From an uncultured Oscillospiraceae bacterium (GTDB taxonomy: Bacteria > Bacillota > Clostridia > Acetivibrionales > DTU013): DNA of 64,000 bases. Numbering within the stretch: the stretch's first letter is position 1; the number at the start of each line of letters is the position of its first letter. The position numbers and the translations under genes are program-made. Location of the stretch: NCBI GenBank assembly GCA_964490975.1, contig CAZBEQ010000010.1:8837-72836 (forward strand), read 5' to 3'. Of the stretch, positions 34,213 to 56,619 are shown in pieces. A model generated the notes under the pieces. That model searched no databases. It was not told the DNA's origin and was given only the letters and a program-made list of their open reading frames with translations.

Positions 34213-34260
34213 TGGTGAGCCATCGCGGATTCGAACCGCGGACACCTTGATTAAAAGTCA
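34213..34260 (-). repeat. att site: 48-bp duplicate of the 3' half of tRNA-Lys (distal island boundary)
   Basis: TGGTGAGCCATCGCGGATTCGAACCGCGGACACCTTGATTAAAAGTCA is identical to 49641-49688. The flanks diverge on both sides. Confidence 0.88.
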
Positions 34261-36244: not shown

Positions 36245-36280
36245 TTTAAAAGCCGTAGGAATTAAATATCCTGCGGCTTT
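36245..36280 (-). terminator. Hairpin terminator after the small-ORF pair
   Basis: AAGCCGTAGGA / TCCTGCGGCTT imperfect stem followed by a T-tract on the minus strand. Confidence 0.55.
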
Positions 36281-36291
36281 CAGTTACTTAT

Positions 36292-36630
36292 TTAGTACCA
36301 AGTATGGTCATTTTTTACGTGTAACCACTTCGGGCATCCATAAAATTGGTACTTAAACCTTATATATATACCATTGCCCTTGTCTTTACAATATGCAACT
36401 GCCAACGGTTGAATTTCTCCCCTGGCTTCAAGTCCCCATCCATTCAAATAGTTAATAAAAAACCTATTGAAGATTTCTGCAGAATAAGCATGCATTTGGT
36501 TTAGTTTATTCATGCCGTAAATATTAGCCATGTCAATTCCATAGATTGCTTTTACATCATCTGCCGTTCTGAGTCTATAATCACCAATTCCTAGTTTTTG
36601 ATACTTTTCAGCAATTGTATTATAATCCAA
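36292..36630 (-). CDS. Hypothetical protein (112 aa)
   Basis: ORF only, with ATG and plausible coding composition. It sits 17 nt downstream of the preceding ORF. Confidence 0.5.
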   Translation of the reverse strand: MDYNTIAEKYQKLGIGDYRLRTADDVKAIYGIDMANIYGMNKLNQMHAYSAEIFNRFFINYLNGWGLEARGEIQPLAVAYCKDKGNGIYIRFKYQFYGCPKWLHVKNDHTWY

Positions 36631-36647
36631 AACTAACCTCCTTCTTA

Positions 36648-37040
36648 TTAAACTTGCATTTTTCGTTTACATTTCAGCTTTATATCCATATCTGTATTAA
36701 ATCTTACAAGTATTGCATTATAGGCTATAAACCTTATTTCATCATCATAATGGAAAATATACCTTGGATTTGTGTATTCGTCCGAATAGCCATTTAGCAA
36801 GTTATAACCCAACCTTATCAATATACGTTCCGGAAGGGTAAATTCACCTTTTTGCTTTTTATTTAGAGCGATTACTTGATTTTTTTCGAGATTGTACACT
36901 GTTTCTAACTTTGCATATAACAAATCCGTCGATGATAAAATATAAAACAACGCTTTTCGCTCGCAGTCAGAACGCTCAATTCCCGATTTCACAAGTAAAC
37001 TCACATAACGCATCTTATGTTTTTGGCTTAAAAACTGCAA
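36648..37040 (-). CDS. Hypothetical protein (130 aa; pattern reminiscent of DUF6075, unverified)
   Basis: ORF only. The N-terminal FLSQKHKMRYVSLL and C-terminal IAYNAILVRF resemble my recollection of DUF6075 proteins from Firmicutes mobile elements. Confidence 0.45.
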   Translation of the reverse strand: MQFLSQKHKMRYVSLLVKSGIERSDCERKALFYILSSTDLLYAKLETVYNLEKNQVIALNKKQKGEFTLPERILIRLGYNLLNGYSDEYTNPRYIFHYDDEIRFIAYNAILVRFNTDMDIKLKCKRKMQV

Positions 37041-37385
37041 TGATATGCTCCTTTCATTTTTTTATATTATAGTAGAGTATGTTTCAAATTATTCCATTCT
37101 GATGTTTAGTCCGACATTATTCTAAGAAATTAACAATAAGAATTTAAGAGGTATTGCTGACATATTACACCGGACGGTACGTTGGTAGGATCTGTAATTG
37201 GTGGTGAACCGATGGAGCCGAACTCACAGCAATAGATTAAACTGTGTATGACATACAAGATGAGAGCCTTGCAAAGAGACAGCAAGGTGCGATCTGATTA
37301 TGTAAATTAATGCTAGCAGAGTGGCGGAAGTATTTATGAGTGAGAAAACTTATATAGAGCTGTTCCTACATTCCTATGACAAAAT

Positions 37386-37841
37386 TTATGACTCAATATT
37401 TCGCCTCATCCTGATACATTCAGGTTTCAACATTCCAAAAAGTCTCTTCTTATAGTAGATTATGTAGTTTCCAGCTAATCCAATTTCGGCCTGCTTTACA
37501 TTTCTAAATACTTCAGTTAAAGGAACAAGCGCTTTAGCTGTATCTATTGAAACAACTTGTTTGTTCGTACATGCTTCACACTGATTTGTATTGGGATCAA
37601 TGCACTGTTCACAATACACAAAGCCGCAGCCTTCACATTTCACTGCCTTATGGCAGTTTGTACACGAATACCTCCCACACCAATTGCATTTTTTCGTATG
37701 CTCATAACATGAAGCTGCATGACATTTATCACAAGTGATAGTATCCTCATCACAAAGCGCTTCAGAACATATATGGCAATTCGTATGGTGACCATTGCAA
37801 AAGAGCTTCTTGTATTCCTTACAAGCAGTTGCATCTTCCAC
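37386..37841 (-). CDS. Cys-rich multi-zinc-ribbon protein (151 aa from GTG); start uncertain, possibly 5'-truncated
   Basis: At least 22 Cys in about 95 aa, arranged as CxxC/CxxxxC pairs, then a Cys-poor 55-aa tail. No ATG and no SD are present. The frame stays open 10 codons upstream and encodes another CxxC (NCSICDAVLC). Confidence 0.5.
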   Translation of the reverse strand: MEDATACKEYKKLFCNGHHTNCHICSEALCDEDTITCDKCHAASCYEHTKKCNWCGRYSCTNCHKAVKCEGCGFVYCEQCIDPNTNQCEACTNKQVVSIDTAKALVPLTEVFRNVKQAEIGLAGNYIIYYKKRLFGMLKPECIRMRRNIES

Positions 37842-37869
37842 GCATAATACGGCATCACATATACTGCAG

Positions 37870-37884
37870 TTCTATGTTAATACA
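37870..37884. promoter_or_regulatory. 15-bp palindrome ATACAAATTTTGTAT, related to the operator at 48031-48046
   Basis: Perfect half-sites ATACAAA/TTTGTAT. It abuts a weak -10-like TAGGAT (37883-37888, minus strand), about 30 nt upstream of the Cys-rich ORF. Confidence 0.5.
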
Positions 37885-37963
37885 AATTTTGTATCCTATT
37901 GTTAAAAAATTTGGTTGGCATTGGCAGCCTATCTTATCAAATTAATCCACATGAACATCAAAT

Positions 37964-40900
37964 CTAATTGTTAGTTCCATTCAATCCAATTCTCTTTCGA
38001 ATTTCTGAATCGGCTTTTGGAAGTGCATTGGACAACATTTTATCCGAGATTGCTACAGCATCTGCAGGAATGCGAGAATATGTAGGGCTCCACATAGCTG
38101 GATATACAAAAATATCCCTTCTGGTCCCATCTGCAACAACGTAATGCTTTATCCCATCATCTTCAATTCTAAATTGAGATTTTAACTCATTCAGTGGTGC
38201 CAATAGTTCATGTTGCCTATCGAAAGATAATGGAGAAGGAAGAACAGATCCTTCACACCAATTGAGCAGATCCAATGCTGCAAACCTGTCCAATTTATCA
38301 TGGACTCGCTGATTCCAGAAATGCATTAGACATTCGTGACAGGCACTATCACAATCGGCTCTACATTCAGACAATACCTTTTTGGTTTCTACAAAGAGCT
38401 CCCGTGTCCGATCTGCCAGCGCAGCACAATAACCAGCCCCACTTGATAGACTGTCAAACAGGAAAACATCAATATATGTTTTACCTGCTGCATATCTCAA
38501 CCGATATCCACTTTTGATATCATTAAACTCAATGTCCAGTAAACGTCCACCAGCAAGAATCATTGCTTCTGCAAGGGTTTGACCAGCAGTGCGAATCCAC
38601 ATTCCATCAGGGTTGTCATTGACCAGTAAGGGATTTATGGCAATTTCATACACTACAAGGTCAGTTAAAAACTGATGTCCCAGGTATGTATTAACAATAC
38701 CCGATGAATGGGGGCAGTTATAAATTTTATGTGGATGACGGTAAGGTTTGTCAATCTTTTTTAATTCTTTCTCATCATCTCCAGGAACAGCAGCACCACA
38801 ATCTTTACATACCATAAAGCCCTTTGATTTCGGGCCCTTATTAAGAATAATGAGCGGCTCATCTGACCTTCTTGAATACCTTAGATTTTTAAATTCGGCA
38901 GGCTTAATCATTTCAACATCAGCAGGTGTTATGGAATAACACGGGTCTTCTGCATAAGTCATTTCACTATCGGAATCAATTTCTCGAGAACTTCTACCGC
39001 CTACTGGAGCAAAGCCCCATGGCTTAAGAAGATTTTGCTCCTTAATACTTGCTTGTCCACAGAATGGACAGACATCATGGTGCAGAAGGCCCATCCAATT
39101 ACATGCTCGGTTTCCGCAGTAGAAAAGCTGTCTAAAGTAATCCTTACTACTAAAGAATGGACGTGCAGGATGCTCCTGATTACCAGCACGAAATTTCGAG
39201 TGGAAACTGTATATACCGCCCGACTTATATGTGGTCTTATTGACTACTACCAGTCTGCCGGGAGCATATTCAGTGATAGCAATATCTAAGGCTCTATCCG
39301 GCATTTGCTCTATTTCTGAGCCTTTATAGTTCTCAATATAGAAGCCAACTACATTTTTGGGGAAGGAATAGGTCGGGAAAATTCCGACTTCCAACATTAC
39401 GTCGAGAACACTTTTTTCGGAGTTCTCATCACTCCTATATTCATCTGGAAACGCTTGAACCTTTGTGAATAAATCATCCATCTCTTGGACAATGTGCGCT
39501 TTGTACTTATCAATTTCCATTACCACCCCGGCTGGCAAAAGCTTACTAAGCTCGGATGAGGAGAAATCCTTCTGAGCAATATGTTTCTTAAATTCTTCAT
39601 AGTATGAGTTAAAGAATTCGCAAACGCCAATGTCATCAGCACCTTTGCAGATGGTCCCAAAGTATTCAGAAAAACATATAACATTCAGGTGTCGCGATGT
39701 CAGCTTCATGTTGTTTACATCGATCCAGGGAAGGCGGGGTTCACCGGAAATGATTTTATCTGGGTTATAAAAATAGTAGCTATCATGAGGACGGTTATCA
39801 GTATAAGTCAGAATCGTTGAAATTGCAGCACTTCGACGTCCTGCTCGCCCAGCTCGCTGCTGATAGTTTTCCCGCATTGGAGGAATGTTACGGAGACCAA
39901 CTGCTGTCAGGGAACCGATATCAATACCGACCTCCATAGTAGTTGTACAACTAAGGACATCCACAGGCCTGTCATTGTTAACATGGACATTTTGAAACCG
40001 CATTTCGAAGTCTTCCGTCGTTGACCACGTCTTCTGTCGTTGATCCTTATGGGATAGTTGAGCCGTATGCTCTTCGGTATTGATTCTGGTCATCAGAGCC
40101 TGTGGTTCACCGTGAACCGCCGCAATTACAGGTGATCTCCAGAAGTTAACTCCTCCAAAATTCTTTACTGTCATAAGTTTCGGTATACCCACCCCGCAGT
40201 GTGCGCATTTGCCCCAAAGCATAAAAGGGAAGATTCCGCTACAGCGAGAGCATTTATACCAATCGTGATGCTCACCAAATTGCAATGTCACCATATCTAG
40301 GTTCAAATACTTGTTTGCTGTATCACTCCCTTTTGACAGGAATTTAGCAAGAGCTTCCGCTATAACCTTTATTTGTTCTCCTGTATAATTCTGTGCCTTA
40401 AGCATCCGCTCAATTCTTTGCGGTAATTTTCTGTCATCCTCAACACCCAAACGTTGATAATATGGTGTCACATCACGGCGTACCTTATCTGCAATTTCCG
40501 AGCCCAGCGCATAGGATGAGGTCATAATCTCCATACTCCACGCTGCAAACAATTTCTTGAAATCCTCTATAGAAATACCAATGTCAGCACTTTCAAATAA
40601 CTCGATAATTTCATCGAAGGTTTCATCTATGTCATAAGGCTCTAGCCAGCACATCCCAATATCCGTTAATGAACGGAAGTTACTGCACATCTGCCTGAGG
40701 AGATGCTCATAATATTGCTCTGGAATGGATTTGAACTCAGATTTCTTCGATGCCATCAAATAATTGATAGAGCCACCCTTCTTTTGAAAATACCTTCCCA
40801 TCGCTTCAAGGGCGTCGCGAAGCTCTTGCTCATTACTGCCATAAAAAAACCTTAAATTATTTTCATAGGCAACTTTAAGAAATGCCACGTACAAAAGGTT

Positions 40901-43216
40901 AAGAGTGGGGTCATTATGAGTTTTCGTTGCCCATATCTGCAACTCATTGGCAGCAACAGTCAACGCCTTCTTCATTGCATCTTCATCGGCTGCACGAGTT
41001 AGGTCTTTTGCCAATACTGCGGCCCGCTGGCGGCTATCAGAGAATAGCAACACCTTTCTCCCCTTATTAACAAGGTTTTGAAGTTTTGGGTTCGGCGGTT
41101 GCACATGAAACTGTTCGGACACTAGGTTGAAGAACGGCTCATCGCCTTTTGTGGAGAAGTCAGTAGCTTTGAAATGAGACTTGTTACAGTTGGGACAGGT
41201 CTTAAAGGTCAGAAGATCGGGGCGCCCCTTTATTTCTGCAGTATGATATGCGACATACAGAAAACCATTTTCTCCAGTGTGATCATCATTGTAAAGGCGA
41301 CCTGTCTTGCTATTCAGCCAGGCCACTTCCACCTCATCCTTTGGTTTTGGAAAACTACCATCCTGCGGAATAATGTAATAGTGAACTTCTTTGAAATTTT
41401 CATCGAATTGCGCACCTGTTTGATTCCAGACGAATGGAGTAAGCTTCTCGCTTTTATCACGGTAACCTCTGAAAAATAGAGCACCACAGGTACGTTCGTT
41501 CATCAGTTCATATATCATGCCGCCACAGTTACAGCGCTGATATTGCGTATTCAAATACACCCGTCCGAATCCAAGCATGGGGTTGGTATTAACAGTTTCG
41601 GTACAGTTAGGGTTGGAACAGGCATAAATACCCTGCAATCCACGGAACATCATATGTAATCTTGCTGGAAACAAAACATGCTCGTCCGAATTTTTTGCCA
41701 TCGGAGCGATTGCCAGTAAAACACTTGTTGCTTTCTCGGCAATTGATTGCTCAACATTTGGAAACGTGGATGCTGAAAGTTGTTCAAACCTTGTAGCATG
41801 GCCACGTGATTTGTCCATGATACGGAGCATTGGATCAGAAACAGATAGTTCCCTGTAAAGCCATTGTTCAACCTCTTTCTCTGATGAGAAATCACATTTG
41901 CTACTGAAGCCTGCTAATCTTCCTAACTCCTCCAAGGCTTTAATGCGTTCTGGCCACTCCCCCTGCAGCCTGTCAATGTCAAAATCCTTAAATAAGGACG
42001 GATCAATTTCTTTGCTTGTATAGACAATTTCATCTACCTCGCCGGTGATCAAAGAAAAGGTATCGTGTGAAGGATCCTGCGCACTCAGCTCGCAAGCGAA
42101 TTTCTTAACAGAATCTTCTTTCCCTGAAGGAATACTTGCGCTTGTAAGTATGAATTGAACCCTGTCTCGGCCAATTCCAAGCTTATAAAGGACACGTCTA
42201 ACGAGAAGCGCAACTTCACCACCGGAGGATCCCCGATACATATGTGCTTCATCTATGATAAACAGTAGTTTTTCTGAGCTCTTTTCTAGCCATTCTTTTG
42301 TCTTTGACCATATACCCTGCTCAATCGGCCGCATAAGCATATATTCTAACATAGAATAGTTCGTGATCAATATATCCGGACAGGACTGATGCATCTCATG
42401 GCGCATAATCAATTCCGCGTCATTCGAATCTGTGTATGGCTGAACATTAGTACGAAGTTGTTCGATAAAAGCTTCCAAGTTATGCTTTGACGGATATTTC
42501 CCCAGATCGACAAGTTGAGCCTTTATCTCATCGCTTTGTTGAACCAAATCCCTTTCTAGAGTATCAGCTAGACCTCTATTTTGGTCAAGATTAGGCCTTC
42601 CTGGATAAGGCGTTCTGCCTGTGTACATACCAAACTGCGGGAAACGCCTGTCAGGTGCTATTTCAGATAAGAACTCATGAAATCCATACTGATCTTGTCG
42701 ATTTCCAATCATCCTGCGAAGTCTACCCAGTTGGTCAGAAACCAATGCATTCATGGGATAAAGCATGATTGCCCGCACGCCGCGCACTTTCCATGAGTCG
42801 GGAGATTGAACAGCTTCCCTGACTATTTTGCTTACCATGGGCCACATAAAGCATTCTGTCTTACCTGAACCTGTACCGGTTGCTATGAACAAATCCCGAC
42901 CTTCATAAAAATCCTCAAGTGCCTTTACTTGGTGCTGATAGGGGTGAGGGAATACACCCAGACCTTTTTCTGACATAGTAGTCAGAATTTCTTTTAGCCC
43001 ATTTTCAAGAGAACTATTCTGAATTCCGTTTTTACACAGCTTGTACGACACACTGGCTTCTATGTATGGTTCCTGATAAAGAATTTTATTTTCCTGGATT
43101 TCAGTTTCGCAAGCCTTTCGTAATTCGTCATTCTTACCTAGATAATCCGTATTGATATAATCCCTGAATCTATTCTTTAGCGCTTCATGTGTGCTTTTAA
43201 CACCATACTTATCCAT
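37964..43216 (-). CDS. Giant SF2 DEXH helicase with zinc-ribbon insertions and a DUF1998-like C-terminal domain (MrfA/DruE-like architecture)
   Basis: 1750 aa. Motif I ATGTGSGKT (42857-42883), motif II DEAH (42242-42253), motif VI QQRAGRAGRR (about 39833-39862). C-terminal cluster CRADCDSACHECLMHFWNQRVHDKLDR (about 38284-38366). RBS GAGGAGG lies inside the end of the upstream gene. Confidence 0.9.
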   Translation of the reverse strand: MDKYGVKSTHEALKNRFRDYINTDYLGKNDELRKACETEIQENKILYQEPYIEASVSYKLCKNGIQNSSLENGLKEILTTMSEKGLGVFPHPYQHQVKALEDFYEGRDLFIATGTGSGKTECFMWPMVSKIVREAVQSPDSWKVRGVRAIMLYPMNALVSDQLGRLRRMIGNRQDQYGFHEFLSEIAPDRRFPQFGMYTGRTPYPGRPNLDQNRGLADTLERDLVQQSDEIKAQLVDLGKYPSKHNLEAFIEQLRTNVQPYTDSNDAELIMRHEMHQSCPDILITNYSMLEYMLMRPIEQGIWSKTKEWLEKSSEKLLFIIDEAHMYRGSSGGEVALLVRRVLYKLGIGRDRVQFILTSASIPSGKEDSVKKFACELSAQDPSHDTFSLITGEVDEIVYTSKEIDPSLFKDFDIDRLQGEWPERIKALEELGRLAGFSSKCDFSSEKEVEQWLYRELSVSDPMLRIMDKSRGHATRFEQLSASTFPNVEQSIAEKATSVLLAIAPMAKNSDEHVLFPARLHMMFRGLQGIYACSNPNCTETVNTNPMLGFGRVYLNTQYQRCNCGGMIYELMNERTCGALFFRGYRDKSEKLTPFVWNQTGAQFDENFKEVHYYIIPQDGSFPKPKDEVEVAWLNSKTGRLYNDDHTGENGFLYVAYHTAEIKGRPDLLTFKTCPNCNKSHFKATDFSTKGDEPFFNLVSEQFHVQPPNPKLQNLVNKGRKVLLFSDSRQRAAVLAKDLTRAADEDAMKKALTVAANELQIWATKTHNDPTLNLLYVAFLKVAYENNLRFFYGSNEQELRDALEAMGRYFQKKGGSINYLMASKKSEFKSIPEQYYEHLLRQMCSNFRSLTDIGMCWLEPYDIDETFDEIIELFESADIGISIEDFKKLFAAWSMEIMTSSYALGSEIADKVRRDVTPYYQRLGVEDDRKLPQRIERMLKAQNYTGEQIKVIAEALAKFLSKGSDTANKYLNLDMVTLQFGEHHDWYKCSRCSGIFPFMLWGKCAHCGVGIPKLMTVKNFGGVNFWRSPVIAAVHGEPQALMTRINTEEHTAQLSHKDQRQKTWSTTEDFEMRFQNVHVNNDRPVDVLSCTTTMEVGIDIGSLTAVGLRNIPPMRENYQQRAGRAGRRSAAISTILTYTDNRPHDSYYFYNPDKIISGEPRLPWIDVNNMKLTSRHLNVICFSEYFGTICKGADDIGVCEFFNSYYEEFKKHIAQKDFSSSELSKLLPAGVVMEIDKYKAHIVQEMDDLFTKVQAFPDEYRSDENSEKSVLDVMLEVGIFPTYSFPKNVVGFYIENYKGSEIEQMPDRALDIAITEYAPGRLVVVNKTTYKSGGIYSFHSKFRAGNQEHPARPFFSSKDYFRQLFYCGNRACNWMGLLHHDVCPFCGQASIKEQNLLKPWGFAPVGGRSSREIDSDSEMTYAEDPCYSITPADVEMIKPAEFKNLRYSRRSDEPLIILNKGPKSKGFMVCKDCGAAVPGDDEKELKKIDKPYRHPHKIYNCPHSSGIVNTYLGHQFLTDLVVYEIAINPLLVNDNPDGMWIRTAGQTLAEAMILAGGRLLDIEFNDIKSGYRLRYAAGKTYIDVFLFDSLSSGAGYCAALADRTRELFVETKKVLSECRADCDSACHECLMHFWNQRVHDKLDRFAALDLLNWCEGSVLPSPLSFDRQHELLAPLNELKSQFRIEDDGIKHYVVADGTRRDIFVYPAMWSPTYSRIPADAVAISDKMLSNALPKADSEIRKRIGLNGTNN

Positions 43217-43217
43217 G

Positions 43218-44225
43218 TCATACCTCCTCTATCTTAACTCCCATTCCTTCAATATGAGCCTTGACATAGGGCCAAATGAAATTAGGCATATCCCATTCCC
43301 CTCTGTCAACAATCGATCTATGTGGCCACGCAAATGTTTCAAGTATGATACGTTCTTTATCTGGCAGATAGGTTTTTATTAATAGCTTCACATGGTCATC
43401 ATATTCACATTTTTCTACTGGTACCGGGCTTTGGGCAATTGAACGCAGAGCAAACATGATACGTCTGTGTTCCCCCATCTTCTGCAAGTGTGTATCTACT
43501 TTGTGATAAGAAATAGCTCCATGCTCTTCCTTTTCGAGGAAATATTCGTATGCCCCATGGTGTAGCGGATGTCGTATTAGTATGACTGAATTGAATCTTC
43601 GACCTCTTCTCGAAGTCCAACAGGTATAGTTGCTGACTGAATCCATTTCTGCTTCAAAGTACTCCGTTCTATCATCTATACAATTTCCGGCCTTCCACCA
43701 AGCATTTTTAACATACTCCCGAAACCATTCAACTGTAGATACGATAGGTGATTTCAAATCATCCTTTATGGATGGAGCAGCAAGAGCGATCCCAGTATAA
43801 ATAAATCCAGTTTCCTTAAATGAACCAATAAGCTGCCGTACTCCATAACCAAGCTCGATTTCTTGCTTGATAGCGAGTCCAATATTTGTATCATATCCGA
43901 CATTCACCAAATCGCCATTTTGAAGTAGCCGTCGTCTGATGATATCGATTGGATCATCTTCATCTTTTATCTCGAACCATGCAACCGATTGTGGGAAGCG
44001 TAACAGCATTTCATTAAGAATATGGGAACATTTTTCGAAAATATGCTTTCTGCTCACTCCCTGCGTTGTCTTATCTGTTATGGATTGATCCACCGCAGCA
44101 GCTTTGACCCAACAAGACATGGCTGAATACAATATGCGATTGATATATTGTACTTCTGATTCATTACAGAATCTCTTTATATTAAGATCTCTGGCCATTG
44201 TTGCGATCATTTCATGAACTATCAT
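43218..44225 (-). CDS. Hypothetical protein (335 aa), third gene of the helicase operon
   Basis: Long ORF. Its stop lies 1 nt before the helicase ATG. I could recognise no motif. Confidence 0.8.
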   Translation of the reverse strand: MIVHEMIATMARDLNIKRFCNESEVQYINRILYSAMSCWVKAAAVDQSITDKTTQGVSRKHIFEKCSHILNEMLLRFPQSVAWFEIKDEDDPIDIIRRRLLQNGDLVNVGYDTNIGLAIKQEIELGYGVRQLIGSFKETGFIYTGIALAAPSIKDDLKSPIVSTVEWFREYVKNAWWKAGNCIDDRTEYFEAEMDSVSNYTCWTSRRGRRFNSVILIRHPLHHGAYEYFLEKEEHGAISYHKVDTHLQKMGEHRRIMFALRSIAQSPVPVEKCEYDDHVKLLIKTYLPDKERIILETFAWPHRSIVDRGEWDMPNFIWPYVKAHIEGMGVKIEEV

Positions 44226-44236
44226 ATCATTATTCT

Positions 44237-46333
44237 CTACAGATATTGGGCAAGAAGGTCAGTATATTTTTCATTCACTCCCAGTGCCTCTAAGATATCT
44301 GTAAGCCTATCCTCCTTGTGCCTTGCTTTTGCATTAACGCATAACTGTAGTAATACAAGCCAGTCGGATTTAATATCGCTATTTATATCAACCATGAGCT
44401 TTGCACACAATACAGCCGCAGTGTTGCTTAGGATACCTGCCTCTAGCAAGGGCTTCAGTAATTTTTTCTTCTCTTCTATTTCATTCTCTTTATAAAAACG
44501 CTCAAAGGGAAATCCTTTTACTGTAGCAGATTTCATTATCTCATTCTCACAATAATCAAAAGCCAAATCTATATCAAGGAATAACGCACTGGACCATACT
44601 GCCGAAGATAGCATACCTGCATCCACACCATCAGCAGCTATCAATAGAATTTTGTTGTTACACGAATCCTTTATCGCATGGAATACATTTTCACTAAAGC
44701 CGTCAAATACACCTGTCAAATACACAACTGGGCCATAAACATTTCTAATTCTATCTGTAATACCCGCCAGATCCGTATAACCCAAAGGAATATTGACAAT
44801 AGCTGCGCCTTCTCCGCAGAAGAGAACAGATAAGCAATTAGCAATAGACAATCCGTTACTTGATACAATAAGAGGCCTGCTATTCAAAGCGCAATGTACG
44901 ATGAGTTGTGCTATTTCATAGGCTTTGACTCTATATCCACATAACGCAAGGTTCTCAGCCAATTCTTCTTCTAAACTTTCTTTATCAATGATTTCAGTAT
45001 TAGAGCCTTCAATGCACTTTGGAATGCTTGTATACGAATGAATCGGAGAGCTACTTTTCTCTGTACCTCCGATACTGCGAACCAATGAGCTGATAGCAAC
45101 GTGATGAACAATTTTATCGGAGAAACCCCTAAGTTCGTTTTCGATATCAGCATTAATCTGTTCTAGTTTTCCCTTAGCTATCATTTGGTCGTTCTGAATC
45201 TGCTGGATTTCATTTTCAAGTTCTACTCGGCGCTTATCTGCCTGTTCTGCTGAGGCAATAATCGTATCACGCCTTAGGGATTCCGTAGCGACTTCTCGAC
45301 TAAACTTTTCAATTTCTGCAAGTAGTGCTTCCTTCTCCGTATTCTTTTCAGAAAGCCATTGCCCTTTAGCAATATCAACGCATTTCTGCCTGACATCAAC
45401 TATTTTGAAAAGGTTCTGGGATATAATACGGTCAGCATCAGTATCATTCAAGAGTGTTTTGCAGATTTCATCAGCATACCTGGGTAAAACCTCTCCTAGC
45501 TGAGTCAGATCATAACCAGTAACTTGGAAGTAATTTTGCACTTGATCGTAATCACATATGATTTCTCTAATACATATTGAGATATTCTGGATATCATGAT
45601 CAGATAATTGTAACATAGCTTTCTTCTGCTTTAAGCACTTAGAAATGTAGTGAGGCACATATCTCTGTAAATCAAGTAATGGAAAATTGCATATTTTTTT
45701 AGGCAAGTCCGTGTAGCGATAAAAGTATCTGGTCGGAACCTTTCCACCGTCAGCATCTGTGATCAAAGAGTTATCTGTATCAAGTACATCCGGTTTATCT
45801 ATATAGTATTCATCTAGGTAATGGATTGAGTGCAGCATATCCGACATACTTGAATGTATCTTATAAATAGAACCTGTATGTATCATGTTCTTTTTGGAGC
45901 AATGAAGAGCTACATATTGCGACGAAATGCTGCCTATAATGATAAGCAGCTCGTCTCCCGCATTTTTATCAATCATGATCCCATCGAATAGAACCTCCCG
46001 AATCCTACTCTGATCTGTAATATCAATTGTGTTTAATTCTTGCGGAAATATCACCTCGTAAACATTGGCGGGATATCTAGTTGATATGGTTCGATTACTA
46101 CCATCCTCCTTGAATCCCCACTCACGGATCACTGCCATGTTTGCTGCGGCATCTTTAGGCAATGCTCCAATAATTCTGGGATAGGTCAAGTCCTCTTCAC
46201 TGACAGAAAAAAATGTAGCTGGTGTTAAGCTACGTGTATCGATGTCATAATCAGCAATACGAAAAAACAAATATTGACCTAACATATTCTTATTTGGATA
46301 TGTTACACACAAGGAATATCTTTTTTCAGACAT
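44237..46333 (-). CDS. Hypothetical protein (698 aa) with a central coiled coil, second gene of the helicase operon
   Basis: The ATG directly abuts the stop of the upstream gene. A heptad-rich segment is present (EKEALLAEIEKFSREV...RRVELENEIQQIQNDQMIAKGKLEQINADIENEL). No Walker A was seen. Confidence 0.8.
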   Translation of the reverse strand: MSEKRYSLCVTYPNKNMLGQYLFFRIADYDIDTRSLTPATFFSVSEEDLTYPRIIGALPKDAAANMAVIREWGFKEDGSNRTISTRYPANVYEVIFPQELNTIDITDQSRIREVLFDGIMIDKNAGDELLIIIGSISSQYVALHCSKKNMIHTGSIYKIHSSMSDMLHSIHYLDEYYIDKPDVLDTDNSLITDADGGKVPTRYFYRYTDLPKKICNFPLLDLQRYVPHYISKCLKQKKAMLQLSDHDIQNISICIREIICDYDQVQNYFQVTGYDLTQLGEVLPRYADEICKTLLNDTDADRIISQNLFKIVDVRQKCVDIAKGQWLSEKNTEKEALLAEIEKFSREVATESLRRDTIIASAEQADKRRVELENEIQQIQNDQMIAKGKLEQINADIENELRGFSDKIVHHVAISSLVRSIGGTEKSSSPIHSYTSIPKCIEGSNTEIIDKESLEEELAENLALCGYRVKAYEIAQLIVHCALNSRPLIVSSNGLSIANCLSVLFCGEGAAIVNIPLGYTDLAGITDRIRNVYGPVVYLTGVFDGFSENVFHAIKDSCNNKILLIAADGVDAGMLSSAVWSSALFLDIDLAFDYCENEIMKSATVKGFPFERFYKENEIEEKKKLLKPLLEAGILSNTAAVLCAKLMVDINSDIKSDWLVLLQLCVNAKARHKEDRLTDILEALGVNEKYTDLLAQYL

Positions 46334-47944
46334 TTATACCATCCCCCTAATATCTGCCAGGTATCTTAAGGCCCCTGTATGCATATTGCCGCAATTGATC
46401 ATATTCTTAAGTACGCTGGTAAACTCTGTATATTCATGTTCTATCATTAACTTTACATATTGGCGTACCCATCCAGGAATCGGCACTTCGGTTCCTTTCG
46501 CGCTCGATAGAAGTCCCTTCGCCAAGACATGATCTTCGAAAATATCAACAGAACTTTCTGGCTTTTTAAAAGATATACCAAATATCTTTCTTGACTCGAC
46601 ATAAATATCGAGGTTATCATGAATGTTTAAATCCGTTATACTTACTGTCTGAGCATCACGAAAAGAAATATGCTTGTATTGCTCCCTCCTATTCTTATGA
46701 TACAATTCCGCCTTGGCGTTCAATGAAAGGCTTATACCACCTTCTATTACACTAGTCGGTAGAGGCAAACAAAAATCCATTGCATTTCCTTCCTTGTCCA
46801 CTACTGAAAGCGAGTAGCAATTCTTTGATGAAGTTAATAGCCTCTTTCTATATATACTTTCAACCCCCACATATTTTCTGTCTACTGAAGCTATGATTTG
46901 GGGTCCATAAAACAGTAAGGCTACTGAATAGTTTCCACTTCCATCACTTTCTACTTGGGCAGTCGATACACTCGCTCCATTGTATGTATAAACTTTGGGA
47001 ATATCATTACCACTTATAGCAGCGCAGAATATTTTTGCCGCTTGCAGTACAGGAACCAATCCTTCGTTTTCGGCAACAGGAGGCCAGAGTGTAATCAACT
47101 CAGGAGATTTCTCAAGTAACCATACTCCAAATATGGATTTCAAGTAGTTGTTGATCCCTGCAAACCTTGACGGATTAGTGGTTGAAGCATTTATTCGAAT
47201 CACATAAACGTTATACAAATAATTATCAAGATACATAGTACCAGCAATACGATTATTGATTTCGGGATAGGACGGTGGGGGCCTTCGTGTTATCAAGAAA
47301 TACTCCTTTTCAGTCGTGATACAATCGCCACGCCTGATCTTCTTTCCACCTGATTCTGTATAGGTAAAAATAGCACTTTCATTTTGAAAGCCGTCAGCAT
47401 AATCAGACCATACCGCTCGTAGCTTCGAAGAGACTGCTGACTCAGAATAGTTTATCGAATAATTCTGCCCATTTGGCGGTATAAAGTCAACCGGAACTAG
47501 AGTTGTCTGATCCTCATAGAAGTTCGTTCGTGTTATTGGTATCAATCGTTCTGTTCTACCATGAGAAACTCCATTGCTGATCTTTATTTGAACCTTGTCT
47601 TCAAAAGCTCGTTGAAAAAGAACCTCCCCCAGAGAAGGAAAGCCAAAATATAGCTTGAATGAGCTTTCAGAATTACATTTGAGATAAAGCGGTAGACCTA
47701 CCCGTTCATAAAGAGTCAAACCCGATCTTCCATCGACCCGTTTATCGCATTCCGGTGATGCTTGCGAGCGGTTGTGATGGCGGAAATAGGCAGTAGTATC
47801 AACTCTTTCAACAAGAGTAACAGTCTCATTGCACTCAGGGCAGCTAAACCGTCCAGTACGAAAACAATGCTTATCTTGAACTATATCAGAGGCGGATACT
47901 TCGCGCTGCTTGCCGATCTCATAGTTATCGATTGCATATAGCAT
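46334..47944 (-). CDS. Hypothetical protein with an N-terminal CoiA-like zinc finger, first gene of the helicase operon
   Basis: CPECNETVTLVERVDTTAYFRHHNRSQASPEC resembles the CxxC...HF(A/R)H...C element of CoiA-type proteins. The ATG at 47942-47944 is preceded by GGGAGA. The track ORF begins at a TTG at 48001. Confidence 0.75.
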   Translation of the reverse strand: MLYAIDNYEIGKQREVSASDIVQDKHCFRTGRFSCPECNETVTLVERVDTTAYFRHHNRSQASPECDKRVDGRSGLTLYERVGLPLYLKCNSESSFKLYFGFPSLGEVLFQRAFEDKVQIKISNGVSHGRTERLIPITRTNFYEDQTTLVPVDFIPPNGQNYSINYSESAVSSKLRAVWSDYADGFQNESAIFTYTESGGKKIRRGDCITTEKEYFLITRRPPPSYPEINNRIAGTMYLDNYLYNVYVIRINASTTNPSRFAGINNYLKSIFGVWLLEKSPELITLWPPVAENEGLVPVLQAAKIFCAAISGNDIPKVYTYNGASVSTAQVESDGSGNYSVALLFYGPQIIASVDRKYVGVESIYRKRLLTSSKNCYSLSVVDKEGNAMDFCLPLPTSVIEGGISLSLNAKAELYHKNRREQYKHISFRDAQTVSITDLNIHDNLDIYVESRKIFGISFKKPESSVDIFEDHVLAKGLLSSAKGTEVPIPGWVRQYVKLMIEHEYTEFTSVLKNMINCGNMHTGALRYLADIRGMV

Positions 47945-48030
47945 TGTATGTCTCCCACAATAAAAGCTCTCAAATATAGTAACCACGATTTTTTGTATCA
48001 ATCGTAATGATTTTTACAGTAATGGTGGAA

Positions 48031-48046: not shown

Positions 48047-48050
48047 CATA

Positions 48051-48522: not shown

Positions 48523-49533
48523 TTATATCTTTATCCGATCAATTAGCGATAGACTTTTATCTTTGATATGTACAATTGTACTGGCAAGATGAACATAATT
48601 GTTCAATACCGAGAAACTCTCGTGTCCAGTACTGAGTCTTAGGCTAAAAATATCTCCGCCTGCGGCGAGATACATAGTGCAATATGTATGTCTGAGTAGG
48701 TGCGGGTATATTTTTGTTATCCCTGTTTTTCCCCGTAGCCGCCGAAATAATTGTTTTATTGTTGCCTGAGTGATTGCCGTGCCATCCTCCTTCAAAAATA
48801 AGCTTTCAACCTTTACGCTGGCTGGCTCCGGCCTTTCTTGATTGACATACCTGAATATCATCTTCTGCATGTTAATTCCGAAACTTATAAATCGTTCCTT
48901 ATTACCCTTTCCCAAAACTTTCAAGGTGTTCTGATTAAGCCTAACATTAGCAAGCTTCAGTTTTGTAACTTCCTCAAGTCTGAGTCCACACTCAATCATA
49001 ATTGAGATAATTACCAGGTCTCGAAGATGGTTTGTCTTCTTGCTATCAAGATATTTTAAAATAGTATGTATTTCTTCTTCTGTTAAAATCTCAATAGCAG
49101 GTGCTGTAGCCCTCGGGAGTTTAATTTCAGATGAAACAGTCCCATTCAGATAGCCTTCATCTTCCATCCATGCCGTCCAAGCCTTTAGTGCCCTTATATA
49201 TGTTTGTACCGACTTTGAGGTTAATTGCCCATCAGATTCGATGTGTTGGGTTTTAGCCCACTTTTTAGCGGTCTTAAGGTATAGAATATACTTTTTGATT
49301 TGTTCCTTGGTAATGCTGGATGTGTCTGTATCCAAACACTGTTCTTCAAGATAGGATATAAATCTGTCAATGTTGCCTTTGTAGTACTCCACTGTGGCCT
49401 TTGAGTTCCCTCGGCAGCTTTGCTCAAACAGAAACCCATCCTTCATTTTTTCCAGACTGAATACATGAATAGCATCCTTCCCGCAATCCATAAAACCTTT
49501 TCCTGAGTTGTTTTGATTCCTTGATTTGTTCAT
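48523..49533 (-). CDS. Site-specific tyrosine integrase
   Basis: N-terminal SAM-like core-binding domain (KATVEYYKGNIDRFISYL) and a catalytic domain with GLRLEE, HLLRHTYCTMYL and LNNYVH. The ATG at 49531-49533 is preceded by GGAGG. The longer track ORF reads through two tRNA genes. Confidence 0.9.
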   Translation of the reverse strand: MNKSRNQNNSGKGFMDCGKDAIHVFSLEKMKDGFLFEQSCRGNSKATVEYYKGNIDRFISYLEEQCLDTDTSSITKEQIKKYILYLKTAKKWAKTQHIESDGQLTSKSVQTYIRALKAWTAWMEDEGYLNGTVSSEIKLPRATAPAIEILTEEEIHTILKYLDSKKTNHLRDLVIISIMIECGLRLEEVTKLKLANVRLNQNTLKVLGKGNKERFISFGINMQKMIFRYVNQERPEPASVKVESLFLKEDGTAITQATIKQLFRRLRGKTGITKIYPHLLRHTYCTMYLAAGGDIFSLRLSTGHESFSVLNNYVHLASTIVHIKDKSLSLIDRIKI

Positions 49534-49563
49534 ATTACGCCTCCGAAATTTATTCATGAGCGA

Positions 49564-49640: not shown

Positions 49641-49716
49641 TGGTGAGCCATCGCGGATTCGAACCGCGGACACCTTGATTAAAAGTCAAGTGCTCTGCCA
49701 ACTGAGCTAATGGCCC
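49641..49716 (-). tRNA. tRNA-Lys (TTT); its 3' 48 nt form the proximal att repeat
   Basis: The reverse complement reads GGGCCATTAGCTCAGTTGGCAGAGCACTTGACTTTTAATCAAGGTGTCCGCGGTTCGAATCCGCGATGGCTCACCA. Confidence 0.92.
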
Positions 49717-54591: not shown

Positions 54592-56619
54592 TCATTCGAG
54601 CTCCACGAGCCATATCTCAGCTGAAGCATCGCTCGGCATGCGCCAGTCTCCCCTTGGTGACAGGCTGATGGTACCAACCTTCGGTCCGTCAGGCAGACAT
54701 GACCGTTTGAACTGCTGTGAGAAAAACCGCTTGATAAAGACCTTCAGCCATGACTTTATTGTCTGCGGATCATACTGTTCTTTAAATGCCTGCTCTGCCA
54801 GGTAAAGCAGTTTTTTAGGCGCTGCACCGTAACGCAGCATATGATAAAGAAAGAAATCGTGCAGCTCATAAGGCCCGACTATATCTTCAGTTTTTTGTCT
54901 TATCTCCCCATTTTCATCAGGAGGCAAAAGTTCAGGAGATATCGGTGTGTCCAATATCCTCAGCAAAACCTCCGCTGTAGCCTTGTCAGTTACATTGTCA
55001 GCAGCCCATTGTACGAGATACTTAACAAGCGTTTTTGGTATCCCACAGTTTACCGAGTACATAGACATGTGATCACCATTATATGTGCACCAGCCCAACG
55101 CAAGCTCTGAAAGGTCGCCAGTTCCAATGACAAGTCCGCCCAGCTTGTTCGCCGTGTCCATTAGTATCTGAGTGCGTTCCCTTGCCTGGACATTTTCATA
55201 GGTTACATCATGAACCGACGGATCGTGGCCGATGTCTTCAAAATGCTGCAGGCAGGACTTTTTTATATTCACTTCTCGCAGTTCGGCGCCAAATGATTTT
55301 ATCAGCTGCACTGCATTATCATAAGTTGCATCAGTGGTACCGAATCCCGGCATAGTTATCGCCAATATGTTTTCCCTCGGTATATCGAGCATATCAAATG
55401 TCTTGACAGCTACTATGAGTGCCAGAGTTGAATCCAATCCGCCAGAGATACCCAGAACCGCTTTCTTCAAGCCTGTATGCTCCAGTCGCTTCGCAAGTCC
55501 TGCCGTCTGGATGGCAAATATCTCACTGCACCTCTTGTCCCTTGCCAACTTATCGGAAGGTACAAAAGGATGAGGATCCACATATCTTAATATCTTTGCA
55601 GCTTTATTCGTCTGATTGCCCTCGTCTGGCGAAGCAACTACTAGCCTACCCGATATTGGCGTACTGGCAGTGATTTCAGGCAATTCCTGATACATTTCAC
55701 AAAGCCTGAATGGTATCTTTCTGTAGCTGCGTTCCGGCACAGCCTCCATAAAGGTCGTATTTTTGATCCTGTCGTTGCGTAGGCGATGAACATCGATATC
55801 ACTGATCAACAGGCTTTCTTCCCGCAAATATCTTTCAGCTTCACTCAGGATGCCGCCATTTTCCGCGATAAGCGCATGACCACCGAAAACAACATCCGTA
55901 GTTGATTCATGTACACCGCATGAGGCGAACACGTAGCCTGCGACACACTTGCCCGATTGCTGTTTTACGAGCTCTCTCCTGTACTCTGCCTTGCCTATTA
56001 TCTCATTGCTGGCAGAAAGGTTGAATATAATGGTTGCACCGGCAGTTGCCTGATATGAACTCGGAGGTATCGGAGCCCATAGGTCTTCACAAATTTCAAC
56101 TCCGAAACAGACGCTCTCCAATCCTGATGTTATTGCATTAACACGTGACTCAAACAGCAAGTCGGCACCAAAGGGCACATTTTTGCCAAATAGTTCAACA
56201 TAGCTGCTTTTTACATTTCTCCCCGATGCGAACCAGCGCTCCTCATAAAATTCATTATAGCCGGGTATGTATGTCTTAGGCACAATGCCCAGTATTTCTC
56301 CTTTTTGAAGAACCGCCGCACAGTTAAAGAGCTGATTGTCGATCTGCAGCGGCAGTCCGACTATAGTTGTGATCCTGAGATCCTTCATTGCCTCCGCTAT
56401 TTTGCCAAGCCCTGCGGCAGCAGCTCTGAGGAGCTGGTCCTGATGGAACAGATCGGCGCATGTATAAGCGGTGATTGACAGCTCAGGGAAAACTATAAGT
56501 TCAACATCCGCGGCTTCGGCTTCTTTTATCATACTGATGATATTATCCGTATTATAATTACAGGCAGCTACCTTCAGTTTGGGAACCGCTGCAGCTGCTC
56601 TGATGAATCCATGGTCCAT
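54592..56619 (-). CDS. nadE: Glutamine-dependent NAD+ synthase
   Basis: 675 aa. N-terminal CN-hydrolase domain (EICEDLW) and a C-terminal synthetase domain with GISGGLDST. Confidence 0.9.
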   Translation of the reverse strand: MDHGFIRAAAAVPKLKVAACNYNTDNIISMIKEAEAADVELIVFPELSITAYTCADLFHQDQLLRAAAAGLGKIAEAMKDLRITTIVGLPLQIDNQLFNCAAVLQKGEILGIVPKTYIPGYNEFYEERWFASGRNVKSSYVELFGKNVPFGADLLFESRVNAITSGLESVCFGVEICEDLWAPIPPSSYQATAGATIIFNLSASNEIIGKAEYRRELVKQQSGKCVAGYVFASCGVHESTTDVVFGGHALIAENGGILSEAERYLREESLLISDIDVHRLRNDRIKNTTFMEAVPERSYRKIPFRLCEMYQELPEITASTPISGRLVVASPDEGNQTNKAAKILRYVDPHPFVPSDKLARDKRCSEIFAIQTAGLAKRLEHTGLKKAVLGISGGLDSTLALIVAVKTFDMLDIPRENILAITMPGFGTTDATYDNAVQLIKSFGAELREVNIKKSCLQHFEDIGHDPSVHDVTYENVQARERTQILMDTANKLGGLVIGTGDLSELALGWCTYNGDHMSMYSVNCGIPKTLVKYLVQWAADNVTDKATAEVLLRILDTPISPELLPPDENGEIRQKTEDIVGPYELHDFFLYHMLRYGAAPKKLLYLAEQAFKEQYDPQTIKSWLKVFIKRFFSQQFKRSCLPDGPKVGTISLSPRGDWRMPSDASAEIWLVELE

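Follow-up and report, generated by a model that had tools for sequence, protein, structure and literature searches.

Published work already covers the zinc-ribbon-rich layout of the Druantia helicase DruE, including a solved structure for type III: cryo-EM reveals five zinc motifs, two of them touching DNA, with two zinc motifs in an OB-zinc domain, and the MZB module is required for unwinding, mutants in its cysteines losing defence (Himpich et al., 2026, 10.64898/2026.05.13.724758). Type III DruE unwinds in the 3'-to-5' direction and requires a 3' overhang (10.64898/2026.05.12.722862), but three studies conflict over whether a 3' or a 5' overhang is preferred, and over whether the PLD acts as a nuclease or is dispensable (2026.05.12.722862, 2026.05.13.724758, 2026.05.13.724313). 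For type I DruE (Doron et al., 2018), an HTH insert in RecA1 and an inactivated Vsr-like C-terminal domain have been described, and the DruE/ARMADA lineage carries a beta-barrel zinc module and a zinc module after a MarR-like domain (Bell et al., 2025, PMC12458937); neither structure nor mechanism was found for type I DruE, DruB, DruC or DruD in the literature searched. Two further comparisons are instructive, i.e. MrfA/YprA of B. subtilis (6znp/6znq/6zns; Roske et al., 2021), a repair helicase of 751 aa whose partner is the exonuclease MrfB, and DISARM, in which helicase and DUF1998 module are separate proteins accompanied by a methylase and a PLD protein.

Here we describe an open reading frame in a 64-kb window (the whole stretch of DNA analysed, 64,000 nucleotides) that is very probably druE, the signature helicase of a Druantia type I-class anti-phage system and the last gene of a druB-druC-druD-druE operon (Table 1). 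The assigned ATG start is right, since the N-terminus of the protein (MDKY...) is almost unvarying among homologues. The PADLOC profile DruE1 (PDLC00013) matches with 1883 bits, aligning residues 1-1742 of 1750 with profile positions 2-1773 of 1776; it is the sole end-to-end PADLOC match, leading the next by more than 1200 bits. Profiles for other DruE types reach 340-620 bits with partial coverage of the protein, and those for DpdJ, DrmA and BrxH 67 bits or less, also partial. In Pfam, MZB (PF09369) covers aa 1549-1630 across profile positions 2-80 of 80 (40.4 bits, E 4.9e-10, cut-off 24.2), and both DEAD (72.4 bits, split in two stretches) and Helicase_C (aa 1078-1128, 32.5 bits) score above their cut-offs. 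NCBIfam has no model naming DruE, and all of its matches fall far below cut-offs; a precomputed annotation assigns PF27116 (YjiV_N), listed without a position. Sequence and profile searches of the PDB recovered 9tu7 (2.3e-93), 9wae (3.2e-85) and MrfA 6znp (1.9e-18). The first two of these are cryo-EM structures of type III DruE.

Table 1. Features of the druBCDE locus and its island, with coordinates in the window.
Feature	Coordinates	Strand	Basis
druE	37964..43216	-	single intact ORF, 1750 aa, ATG start
DruE RecA1, about aa 70-395	42032..43009	-	motif positions, Pfam DEAD, AlphaFold secondary structure
DruE helical domain after RecA1, about aa 400-510	41687..42019	-	helices 406-506, pLDDT 82-91; boundaries approximate
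DruE beta-rich double zinc-binding domain, about aa 515-715	41072..41674	-	beta strands 518-705; seven clustered Cys
DruE RecA2 start, aa 716-744, motif IV-like KVLLFSDSRQRA	40985..41071	-	invariant block
DruE helical insertion within RecA2, about aa 745-985	40262..40984	-	all-helical 729-957, pLDDT mostly 80-90
DruE Cys4 zinc ribbon, C989-x2-C992 ... C1004-x2-C1007	40187..40261	-	invariant in 67/67 homologues
DruE remainder of RecA2, about aa 1011-1165, motifs V (1091) and VI (1120)	39722..40186	-	Pfam Helicase_C 1078-1128
DruE winged-helix-like helical domain, about aa 1166-1280	39377..39721	-	helices 1170-1277 in C-terminal model
DruE OB and connector region, about aa 1281-1464, Cys4 C1367/C1372/C1383/C1386	38825..39376	-	invariant Cys
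DruE MZB/DUF1998 module, about aa 1465-1650	38267..38824	-	PF09369, C1470/C1473/C1501(/H1503) and C1618/C1622/C1626/C1629
DruE C-terminal alpha/beta domain, about aa 1651-1742	37967..38266	-	pLDDT 86-95
druD, 335 aa	43218..44225	-	PADLOC DruD1 E 7.7e-19; jackhmmer reaches proteobacterial DruD
druC, 698 aa, central coiled coil	44237..46333	-	jackhmmer and conserved position
druB, 536 aa from ATG at 47944	46334..47944	-	PADLOC DruB1 E 1.5e-8; jackhmmer to proteobacterial DruB 3.9e-20
tyrosine integrase of island	48523..49560	-	Pfam Phage_integrase 1.3e-28; NCBIfam Xer-like matches
attL, 3' 48 nt of intact tRNA-Lys(ttt) gene (49641-49716)	49641..49688	-	
attR, perfect 48-nt copy of tRNA-Lys 3' end, far island border	34213..34260	-	

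Annotated type I DruE proteins from P. putida pKF715A (WP_096427124.1) and R. solanacearum pUW163a (WP_247543885.1) are about 32-33% identical to the window protein and belong to the same length class (1841-1851 vs 1750 aa). They share with it the helicase motifs, the short C-terminal domain without PLD, the upstream DruB-DruC-DruD and all five cysteine clusters, except that C564 is Ser in both. The window locus differs from theirs in having no DruA, in its gut Clostridia-like rather than proteobacterial origin and in its location on a small tRNA-Lys island. Points against a type I reading are the missing DruA of the original five-gene definition, the lack of a PADLOC match for DruC and the weakness of the DruB match. 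DruE is ordinary for its family, the absent druA alone being mildly new, and an exotic-looking protein of 200 kDa thus turns out to be the usual motor protein of an anti-phage system already known, a result that is mainly one of clean annotation.

The helicase motifs are intact. PYQHQ starts at aa 92, ATGTGSGKT at 112, LYPMNALVSDQ at 152, DEAH at 322, TSAS at 358 and QRAGRAGRR at 1120, with WNQRVHDKLDR near the C-terminus at 1634, so that each of the superfamily 2 motifs quoted in an earlier, sequence-only reading of this DNA is found in the 1750-aa translation; to these can be added LLFSDSRQ at 725, which resembles motif IV, and TTTMEVGIDIG at 1091, which is motif V. Walker A (GSGKT, 116-120), DEAH (322-325) and motif VI (1120-1128) are invariant in homologues. 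The same reading had placed a single insertion of about 800 aa before motif VI. A large insertion is indeed present, but some 760 aa separate motifs III and VI, and AlphaFold secondary structure divides the additional sequence in two: a helical domain followed by the beta-rich double-zinc domain at the RecA1-RecA2 junction (about 400-715), and, within RecA2 and past motif IV, a helical cap bearing a Cys4 ribbon (about 745-1010). Its DUF1998 module in the manner of MrfA and DrmB was borne out by the PF09369 match and by the fold comparison described below, and the comparison with DruE that it had suggested proved apt, given the end-to-end DruE1 match and the two type III structures among the PDB matches. 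We also checked whether the protein instead lacked DUF1998 similarity and belonged to an unrelated family with a housekeeping role, and found neither to be so.

Several of these domains have acquired more than one name in the literature. The helical domain after RecA1 has been called BrxA-like, a five-helix domain or WH, and the helical insertion in RecA2 a cap, stalk, duplex-binding or MarR-like domain; our label for aa 1166-1280, winged-helix-like, is given by analogy with MrfA and DruE structures. In RecA1 itself, AlphaFold secondary structure shows motifs Ia and II to be separated by an additional helical insert (about aa 205-270). The protein ends about 117 aa beyond the WNQR motif of MZB, and its C-terminal domain (aa 1651-1742) has no recognisable catalytic signature, D1725 being the only conserved acidic residue. 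Pfam searches of isolated segments (the RecA1 insert, aa 501-1033, aa 751-1083 and the C-terminal 117 aa) with E up to 10 returned nothing usable.

Conserved cysteines are the other hallmark of the protein. They fall into the groups C533/C538/C562/C564/C577/C674/C677, C989/C992/C1004/C1007, C1367/C1372/C1383/C1386, C1470/C1473/C1501 and C1618/C1622/C1626/C1629, or into six conserved clusters when counted as two in the double-zinc domain, one in the ribbon that follows the cap, two in the OB-connector region and the MZB Cys4. All 22 are at least 94% conserved among 67 homologues (33-66% identical to DruE), a level reached by 19% of all positions in the protein and by two of its 15 unclustered cysteines; conservation of the clusters is thus far beyond chance (hypergeometric p about 1e-16). 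Within the double-zinc domain six cysteines are invariant in the 67 homologues, and C564 is replaced, by Ser, only in the two proteobacterial sequences.

Four of the five groups have aligned counterparts in type III DruE (9tu7 or 9wae). The double-zinc block LHMxFRGLxGxxACSNxxC...CxCG...CG aligns to 9tu7, the cap ribbon C989-C1007 to WRCSNC...CTRC of 9wae and the MZB Cys4 to the 9tu7 block DC--SCDKFCHHC, in which Cys mutants abolish type III defence, while no 9tu7 cysteine is placed opposite C1367/C1372/C1383/C1386 in the printed part of the alignment; the assignment of cysteines to putative zinc sites follows from these sequence alignments. The earlier count of at least five CxxC pairs was accurate, every quoted cluster being present and conserved. 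What it called unusual, namely so many zinc ribbons and so large an insertion, is the norm for DruE, with clusters conserved across type I and mostly aligned in type III. Of its suggestion that they are modules for recognising nucleic acids or partners, the nucleic-acid half is supported in part, and for type III, where two of five zinc motifs contact DNA (10.64898/2026.05.13.724758).

Beyond the zinc modules, type III DruE (E. coli, P. aeruginosa; 9tu7, 9wae) has in common with the window protein a YprA-like core, the double zinc domain, the RecA2 cap or stalk, OB-zinc and MZB. Motifs Q, I, Ia, II, IV, V and VI align, e.g. the KVLLFSDSRQRA block with RRLLTFTDSRQ of 9tu7, and the cysteine motifs of ZBM_L, cap ribbon and MZB do so residue by residue. 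Profile region 1301-1662 aligns with 9tu7 1368-1723, and aa ~1011-1165 are the stretch best aligned to both 9tu7 and MrfA. Alignment with the type III proteins nevertheless falls into two to five separate stretches, and those proteins are longer (1970-2108 aa), end in two PLD-like domains and have DruH as partner, whereas the window protein is accompanied by DruB, DruC and DruD. No Pfam match to PLD was found in the DruE tail at E 10, DruE3 profiles match parts of the protein only, and a PADLOC scan of the nine neighbouring ORFs (34404-49764) gave no DruH match.

Fold comparison leads to MrfA. The AlphaFold models are of moderate quality (pLDDT 69 and 73), and in Foldseek searches MrfA was the top match of both, 6znp_B for aa 1-1200 (E 7.7e-8) and 6znp_A for aa 1131-1750 (E 3.9e-6), with DrmB 7s9v_B third and weak for the C-terminal model (E 1.4e-2, probability 0.66). 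TM-scores against MrfA are low because of the additional domains, and as the PDB library searched ends in April 2026 and returned no DruE structure, the model comparison is limited to MrfA and DrmB. In RecA2 the best-conserved stretch (aa 1042-1149) was modelled with pLDDT below 50, as were the OB strands, probably because of a shallow alignment (58-79% identity). DruE has the same RecA1-RecA2-OB-connector-MZB core as MrfA, with a RecA2 sequence match of E 6.5e-15, but MrfA has no counterpart of its post-RecA1 helical domain, double zinc domain, cap or additional zinc ribbons. Likeness to DISARM is more limited: RecA2 resembles that of DrmA (PADLOC E 3.6e-13), whose profiles match aa 1083-1152 only, and the DUF1998 subunit DrmB (7s9v) is weakly similar in structure to the C-terminal model. 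What are separate helicase and DUF1998 proteins in DISARM form one fused protein in the window, and neither DrmC nor an MTase was found in the island with Pfam or PADLOC.

The three genes upstream of druE are tightly coupled to it: druB abuts druC (0 nt), druC and druD are 11 nt apart, and 1 nt separates the druD stop from the druE ATG. The order B-C-D-E is kept wherever the sequence of a related locus reaches far enough upstream. Jackhmmer ties window DruB, DruC and DruD to their P. putida and R. solanacearum counterparts with E of 1e-11 to 1e-31; DruC, which has no DruC match in PADLOC, reaches the P. putida protein at 2.1e-31 and the R. solanacearum protein at 1.7e-11. Coiled-coil-type Pfam matches occur in relatives. 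DruB has a DUF7830 match at aa 30-62 and an N-terminal CoiA_N-like zinc finger, and among pooled relatives of DruB, DruC and DruD, not told apart by protein, 16 match CoiA_N (best 3.4e-9) and 11 match DUF7830. No domain is recognisable in DruD. Searches of the PDB with DruB, DruC and DruD gave noise only, and PHROGs held nothing for DruB, DruD or three small island ORFs and one sub-threshold match of unknown function for DruC (E 0.0013). The ORF list starts druB at TTG 48001 instead of the ATG used here. We claim no promoter upstream of druB, as the promoter-like sites there (48079-48051) do not exceed the frequency found in shuffled sequence.

The locus departs from the original definition in having no DruA. 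Jackhmmer searches with two annotated DruA seeds found no homologue in the 64-kb window or within 10 kb either side in 72 related loci, and DUF4338 (PF14236) is absent by Pfam and PADLOC from the ten ORFs scanned around druE (34404-49764); upstream of druB lie 520 nt of non-coding DNA and then the integrase. The related loci are mostly from Clostridia, and about a third have a 5-methylcytosine methylase and an EcoO109I-like nuclease directly upstream and co-directional. It appears that DruA is unnecessary in this clade, and the methylase and nuclease may take over its role in self/non-self recognition. We also put forward, tentatively and with some doubt, that druBCDE is a subtype in its own right within Druantia type I, self-sufficient and dispersed among gut Clostridia by small integrative islands, with some Bacteroidota, Proteobacteria and Desulfovibrionaceae having acquired it by transfer. 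No description of a DruA-less variant was found in the literature searched (PADLOC/DefenseFinder rule files and the supplementary tables of Bell et al. lay outside that search). If functional, druBCDE with a DruE that lacks a nuclease domain would be a natural minimal system in which to ask which partner kills and what DruA adds elsewhere.

The same absence could also reflect decay: formation of the island may have cost a five-gene type I system its druA and left a non-functional remnant. That annotated DruA adjoins DruE in all five plasmid-borne type I loci examined (Proteobacteria, Haloarchaea, Deinococcota) is consistent with such a loss, as is a truncated second integrase in the island. 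Decay is, however, difficult to reconcile with four intact and closely spaced genes, or with a 5.2-kb frame that keeps all catalytic motifs and cysteines, which would not be expected absent selection. The same B-C-D-E arrangement without DruA recurs in all of the 72 related loci, which span many genera, and the closest relative (77% identity) has it too; no other conserved fifth gene was found. We therefore regard a remnant as unlikely.

Two further explanations concern the helicase itself. Other YprA-based defence systems (ARMADA, BRIGADE, TALON, DISARM or Dpd) have the same lineage-specific insertions and zinc modules (PMC12458937), and the weak, partial PADLOC matches to DpdJ, DrmA and BrxH would fit an origin in one of them; yet DruE1 is far ahead as the sole end-to-end match (in PADLOC-DB 2.0.0, which predates ARMADA, BRIGADE and TALON) and the neighbours are homologues of DruB, DruC and DruD rather than DrmC, DrmD, an MTase, or Dpd or ARMADA partners, making such an origin very unlikely. 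A housekeeping helicase of the MrfA/YprA type, repairing mitomycin adducts, would account for MrfA being the best structural match of both models and for the shared MZB domain, but not for 1750 rather than 751 aa (6znp_A), about 1000 aa of them in domains specific to DruE, nor for the lack of an MrfB-like exonuclease partner. The gene also lies on an island with an integrase and bounded by tRNA repeats, and its patchy spread over unrelated gut taxa indicates horizontal transfer, so that a repair role seems exceedingly improbable.

As a type I DruE, the protein likely functions, by analogy, as an ATP-driven 3'-to-5' DNA helicase and the motor of anti-phage defence, its direction, substrate and effector step being extrapolated from type III proteins to which it aligned only in separate stretches (phmmer/profile, PDB). 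On the model of type III DruE and MrfA, it would load onto exposed single-stranded DNA or ss/ds junctions in phage DNA that is replicating or recombining, and move 3'-to-5' with ATP while unwinding the duplex. The OB-zinc and MZB modules may close over RecA1, the former needed for DNA binding and the latter for unwinding, and the duplex would enter at the double-zinc domain and the cap; structural roles are expected for most zinc sites, and contact with DNA for one or two. Because this type I protein has no PLD nuclease domain and no catalytic signature in its C-terminal domain, inactivation of phage DNA is probably not the work of DruE itself, and we suggest that DruB, DruC or DruD, or host factors, carry it out.

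The four genes are the cargo of a 15.4-kb island inserted at tRNA-Lys between 48-nt repeats, together with a tyrosine integrase whose true start is probably an ATG near 49557-49533, the listed ORF extending into the tRNA genes. A second, truncated integrase is also present. Looked up by exact protein sequence, DruE and the product of one flanking gene (54592..56619) turned up in a single Logan assembly, SRR8925805. A Logan contig equal to the island was considered as an excised circle and rejected, its ends falling inside the 48-nt repeat as an assembly-graph break predicts. With its exact 48-nt att repeats, the island is a defined unit of horizontal transfer for a Druantia system.

The 1750-residue helicase that closes the druB-druC-druD-druE operon adds one more, new sequence to a known family, DruE, whose architecture has already been published. 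Pfam places DEAD (72.4 bits) and Helicase_C (32.5 bits) domains in the protein, both above curated cut-offs, together with MZB (PF09369, the former DUF1998; 40.4 bits, cut-off 24.2, with the whole profile covered), confirming the DUF1998-like C-terminal module proposed in the sequence-only reading; the precomputed annotation of the exact protein also names PF27116, YjiV_N. The PADLOC DruE1 profile matches residues 1–1742 with 1883 bits; the other DruE types reach 340–620 bits over parts of the protein only, and DpdJ, DrmA and BrxH at most 67 bits. By profile search the nearest solved structures are those of type III DruE, 9tu7 (E = 2.3e-93) and 9wae (E = 3.2e-85), followed by MrfA/YprA (6znp, E = 1.9e-18). 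MrfA is also the best Foldseek match for both AlphaFold models of the protein, aa 1–1200 (pLDDT 73; E = 7.7e-8) and aa 1131–1750 (pLDDT 69; E = 3.9e-6), with DISARM DrmB a weak third for the C-terminal model (E = 1.4e-2), in keeping with the likeness to MrfA and DrmB drawn earlier from the last cysteine cluster. The family is large, with at least 6317 database proteins at E ≤ 1e-10, the closest among the matches listed being 77% identical. The sequence-only interpretation, which had named DruE as a comparison, was correct.

Every helicase motif quoted in that reading was located in the translation (see table), and the cysteine clusters it pointed out are real. All 22 clustered cysteines are at least 94% conserved in an alignment of the query with 64 full-length relatives from a scan of species-representative genomes and two canonical proteobacterial proteins (aligned relatives 33–66% identical to the query), compared with 19% of all positions (p ~1e-16) and two of the 15 unclustered cysteines. 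The 'insertion of about 800 aa' before motif VI stands as extra sequence but not as a single block: some 760 residues separate motifs III and VI, and they include two separate insertions. Nor are the number of zinc ribbons and the insertion size unusual, as had been suggested; both are family traits. Four of the five cysteine clusters align to type III DruE, and the modules have been described by Bell et al. (2025; PMC12458937), who report for the DruE lineage a BrxA-like domain past RecA1, a beta-barrel zinc module with at least two CxxC pairs where RecA2 begins, a MarR-like domain plus another zinc module and, in types I and II, an inactivated Vsr-like C-terminal domain. The block LHMxFRGLxGxxACSNxxC...CxCG...CG of our protein aligns residue for residue with type III DruE of E. 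coli (9tu7), where AICLSCG and DC--SCDKFCHHC lie opposite C1470/C1473 and the Cys4 cluster C1618/C1622/C1626/C1629; in 9wae, WRCSNC...CTRC lies opposite the ribbon C989/C992/C1004/C1007. Himpich et al. (2026; 10.64898/2026.05.13.724758) resolve five zinc motifs in the type III protein: the double zinc domain and the OB-zinc domain have two each, the MZB has one, and only two of the five contact DNA. In that work defence was abolished when the MZB cysteines were mutated, and unwinding needed the MZB. From its sequence, our DruE is predicted to hold six zinc sites, the five published ones plus a cap ribbon.

Coordinates of DruE motifs and of genes at the druBCDE locus and two related loci (nt in the window unless a locus is named; aa in DruE)
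Feature	Position	Strand	Remark
druB	46334..47944	-	likely ATG at 47944, GGGAGA before it
druC	44237..46333	-	abuts druB, no gap
druD	43218..44225	-	11 nt past druC
druE	37964..43216	-	single ORF, 1750 aa, ATG start
PYQHQ	aa 92
Motif I ATGTGSGKT	aa 112
Motif Ia LYPMNALVSDQ	aa 152
Motif II DEAH	aa 322
Motif III TSAS	aa 358
Insertion 1	about aa 400-715		between RecA1 and RecA2; helical domain and beta-rich double-zinc domain
Motif IV-like LLFSDSRQ	aa 725		added to the sequence-only list
Insertion 2	about aa 745-1010		inside RecA2, past motif IV; helical cap, Cys4 ribbon at its end
Motif V TTTMEVGIDIG	aa 1091		added to the sequence-only list
Motif VI QRAGRAGRR	aa 1120
WNQRVHDKLDR	aa 1634
Truncated tyrosine integrase	35476-35976	-	downstream of druE
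DUF6075 ORF	36292-36630	-	downstream of druE
Unmatched ORF	36648-37040	-	downstream of druE
Unmatched ORF	37386-37841	-	downstream of druE
Methylase, EcoO109I-like gene	3499-4698, 4689-5429		related locus L017
Methylase, EcoO109I-like gene	2609-3817, 3657-4544		related locus L001

A single nucleotide separates druE from druD, and druE is the final gene of a packed operon. PADLOC type I profiles recognize DruD (7.7e-19) and DruB (1.5e-8), with no DruC profile match for our DruC; with jackhmmer, all three proteins reach annotated counterparts on P. putida pKF715A and R. solanacearum pUW163a (E = 1.7e-11 to 2.1e-31). PDB sequence and PHROGs searches returned no solved relative and no recognizable catalytic domain for any of the three. 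The N-terminus of DruB carries a zinc finger, CPEC...H..H...C (47761–47944, minus strand), which would fit the CoiA_N (16 proteins, best 3.4e-9) and DUF7830 (11 proteins) matches, counted over the pool rather than protein by protein, in 68 DruB, DruC and DruD relatives; DruB itself has a weak DUF7830 match at aa 30–62, and the scan showed no CoiA nuclease domain following the finger. Scattered coiled-coil-type Pfam matches in the same pool agree with a central coiled coil in DruC (about aa 330–420 in our form). DruC falls into two length classes, ~700 aa (here and in L057 and L014) and ~950–1030 aa, the longer form being that of many of the nearest relatives (e.g. L034, 6057–8966; L069, 5871–8972).

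No homologue of DruA (DUF4338) was found by jackhmmer with two annotated seeds, either in the 64-kb window or within 10 kb on either side in 72 related loci, most of them from Clostridia, and clustering of all neighbouring ORFs yielded no conserved replacement fifth gene. On its upstream side, druB is separated from a tyrosine integrase by 520 nt of non-coding DNA; the closest relative, L080 (77% identity), likewise has B-C-D-E only, without DruA. Annotated DruA stands beside DruE in all five plasmid-borne type I loci that we examined, which come from other phyla (hosts P. putida, R. solanacearum, Haloplanus, Nitrosococcus and Meiothermus). Immediately upstream of druB, and in the same orientation, are a C5 cytosine methylase in 20 related loci, scoring almost equally with the DruM profile and generic type II MTase profiles, and an EcoO109I-like restriction nuclease in ~19; neither gene is present in the window. 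In L080 an EcoO109I-like gene is instead found immediately downstream of druE. Lacking DruA, druBCDE may be a subtype of its own that is self-sufficient and common among gut Clostridia.

One could instead see here a decayed remnant that has lost DruA, but this is unlikely, since the same intact four-gene layout is repeated in the 72 loci, across many genera. That the helicase comes from another YprA-based system is also improbable: its neighbours are DruB, DruC and DruD, and DruE1 leads by more than 1200 bits in a PADLOC set that holds no ARMADA, BRIGADE or TALON profiles. A housekeeping repair role like that of MrfA is also unlikely, as MrfA is ~1000 residues shorter and works with MrfB, whereas MrfB is absent here and the gene sits on an island.

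The analysis establishes that the protein belongs to the family, that its ATPase and helicase motifs are intact and its zinc ligands conserved, that its core is MrfA-like, and that its gene is coupled in an operon with those of DruB, DruC and DruD and carried on an island. By analogy with type III DruE and MrfA, our DruE would load on ssDNA or ss/ds junctions in intermediates formed as phage DNA replicates or recombines, and move 3'-to-5' with ATP, unwinding duplex DNA; the OB-zinc and MZB modules would be required for binding and unwinding, and the double zinc domain and cap would guard the duplex entrance. Type III DruE unwinds 3'-to-5', requires a 3' overhang and has a closed toroidal architecture (Hu et al., 2026; 10.64898/2026.05.12.722862), and Loeff et al. 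(2026) describe a PLD nuclease coupled to the helicase, judging the Cys-rich motifs probably structural. Our type I protein, unlike type III DruE, has no PLD domain, and its C-terminal domain (aa 1651–1742; pLDDT 86–95) has one conserved acidic residue only and matched no Pfam family. From these features we tentatively assign the destructive step to one of DruB, DruC and DruD or to host factors, and it is here that the explanation is weakest. Type I Druantia has been linked to m6A patterns and the small phage inhibitor Druad1 (preprint 10.1101/2024.04.14.589459).

The operon lies between perfect 48-nt direct repeats (34213–34260 and 49641–49688) that correspond to the 3' end of a tRNA-Lys(ttt) gene (49641–49716). 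Within the 15.4-kb island so bounded, druBCDE is accompanied by the integrase, a truncated second integrase, an alpha/beta hydrolase and three small ORFs, one of which is DUF6075; GC falls to 0.34–0.36 at its far end (34–38 kb). None of the four ORFs downstream of druE is conserved beside druE at other loci, and two match nothing in Pfam, PADLOC, NCBIfam or PHROGs; the truncated integrase (166 aa) retains the C-terminal half only. The exact DruE protein occurs on one public contig only, L075 (Logan SRR8925805_127483), whose 15,438 nt are 100% identical to window positions 34231–49668 and end inside the 48-nt repeats; we rejected this contig as evidence of island excision, the cut inside the repeats being an assembly effect. 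The flanking NAD synthase gene, like the exact DruE, was found only in run SRR8925805, so the host genome seems to be represented by one sequencing run.

A strong hairpin of 12 pairs (48125–48152, minus strand) lies between the integrase and druB, and the best promoter-like match (48079–48051, 10/12) comes after it; the promoter count of this region does not exceed what shuffling predicts. AAAATCAAGGTGCCT occurs in two adjacent exact copies (49564–49578 and 49580–49594) in the stretch that separates the tRNA-Lys gene from the start of the integrase, and a related 22-nt motif (GTGCCTGGTCCA...) occurs at 49589–49610 and again outside the island at 32728–32749; these repeats may represent arm sites for the integrase or what is left of an older insertion. 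Just outside the island, a 154-nt direct repeat (31256–31409 and 31492–31645), whose copies are 90% identical and begin 236 nt apart, overlaps the ends of two minus-strand ORFs.
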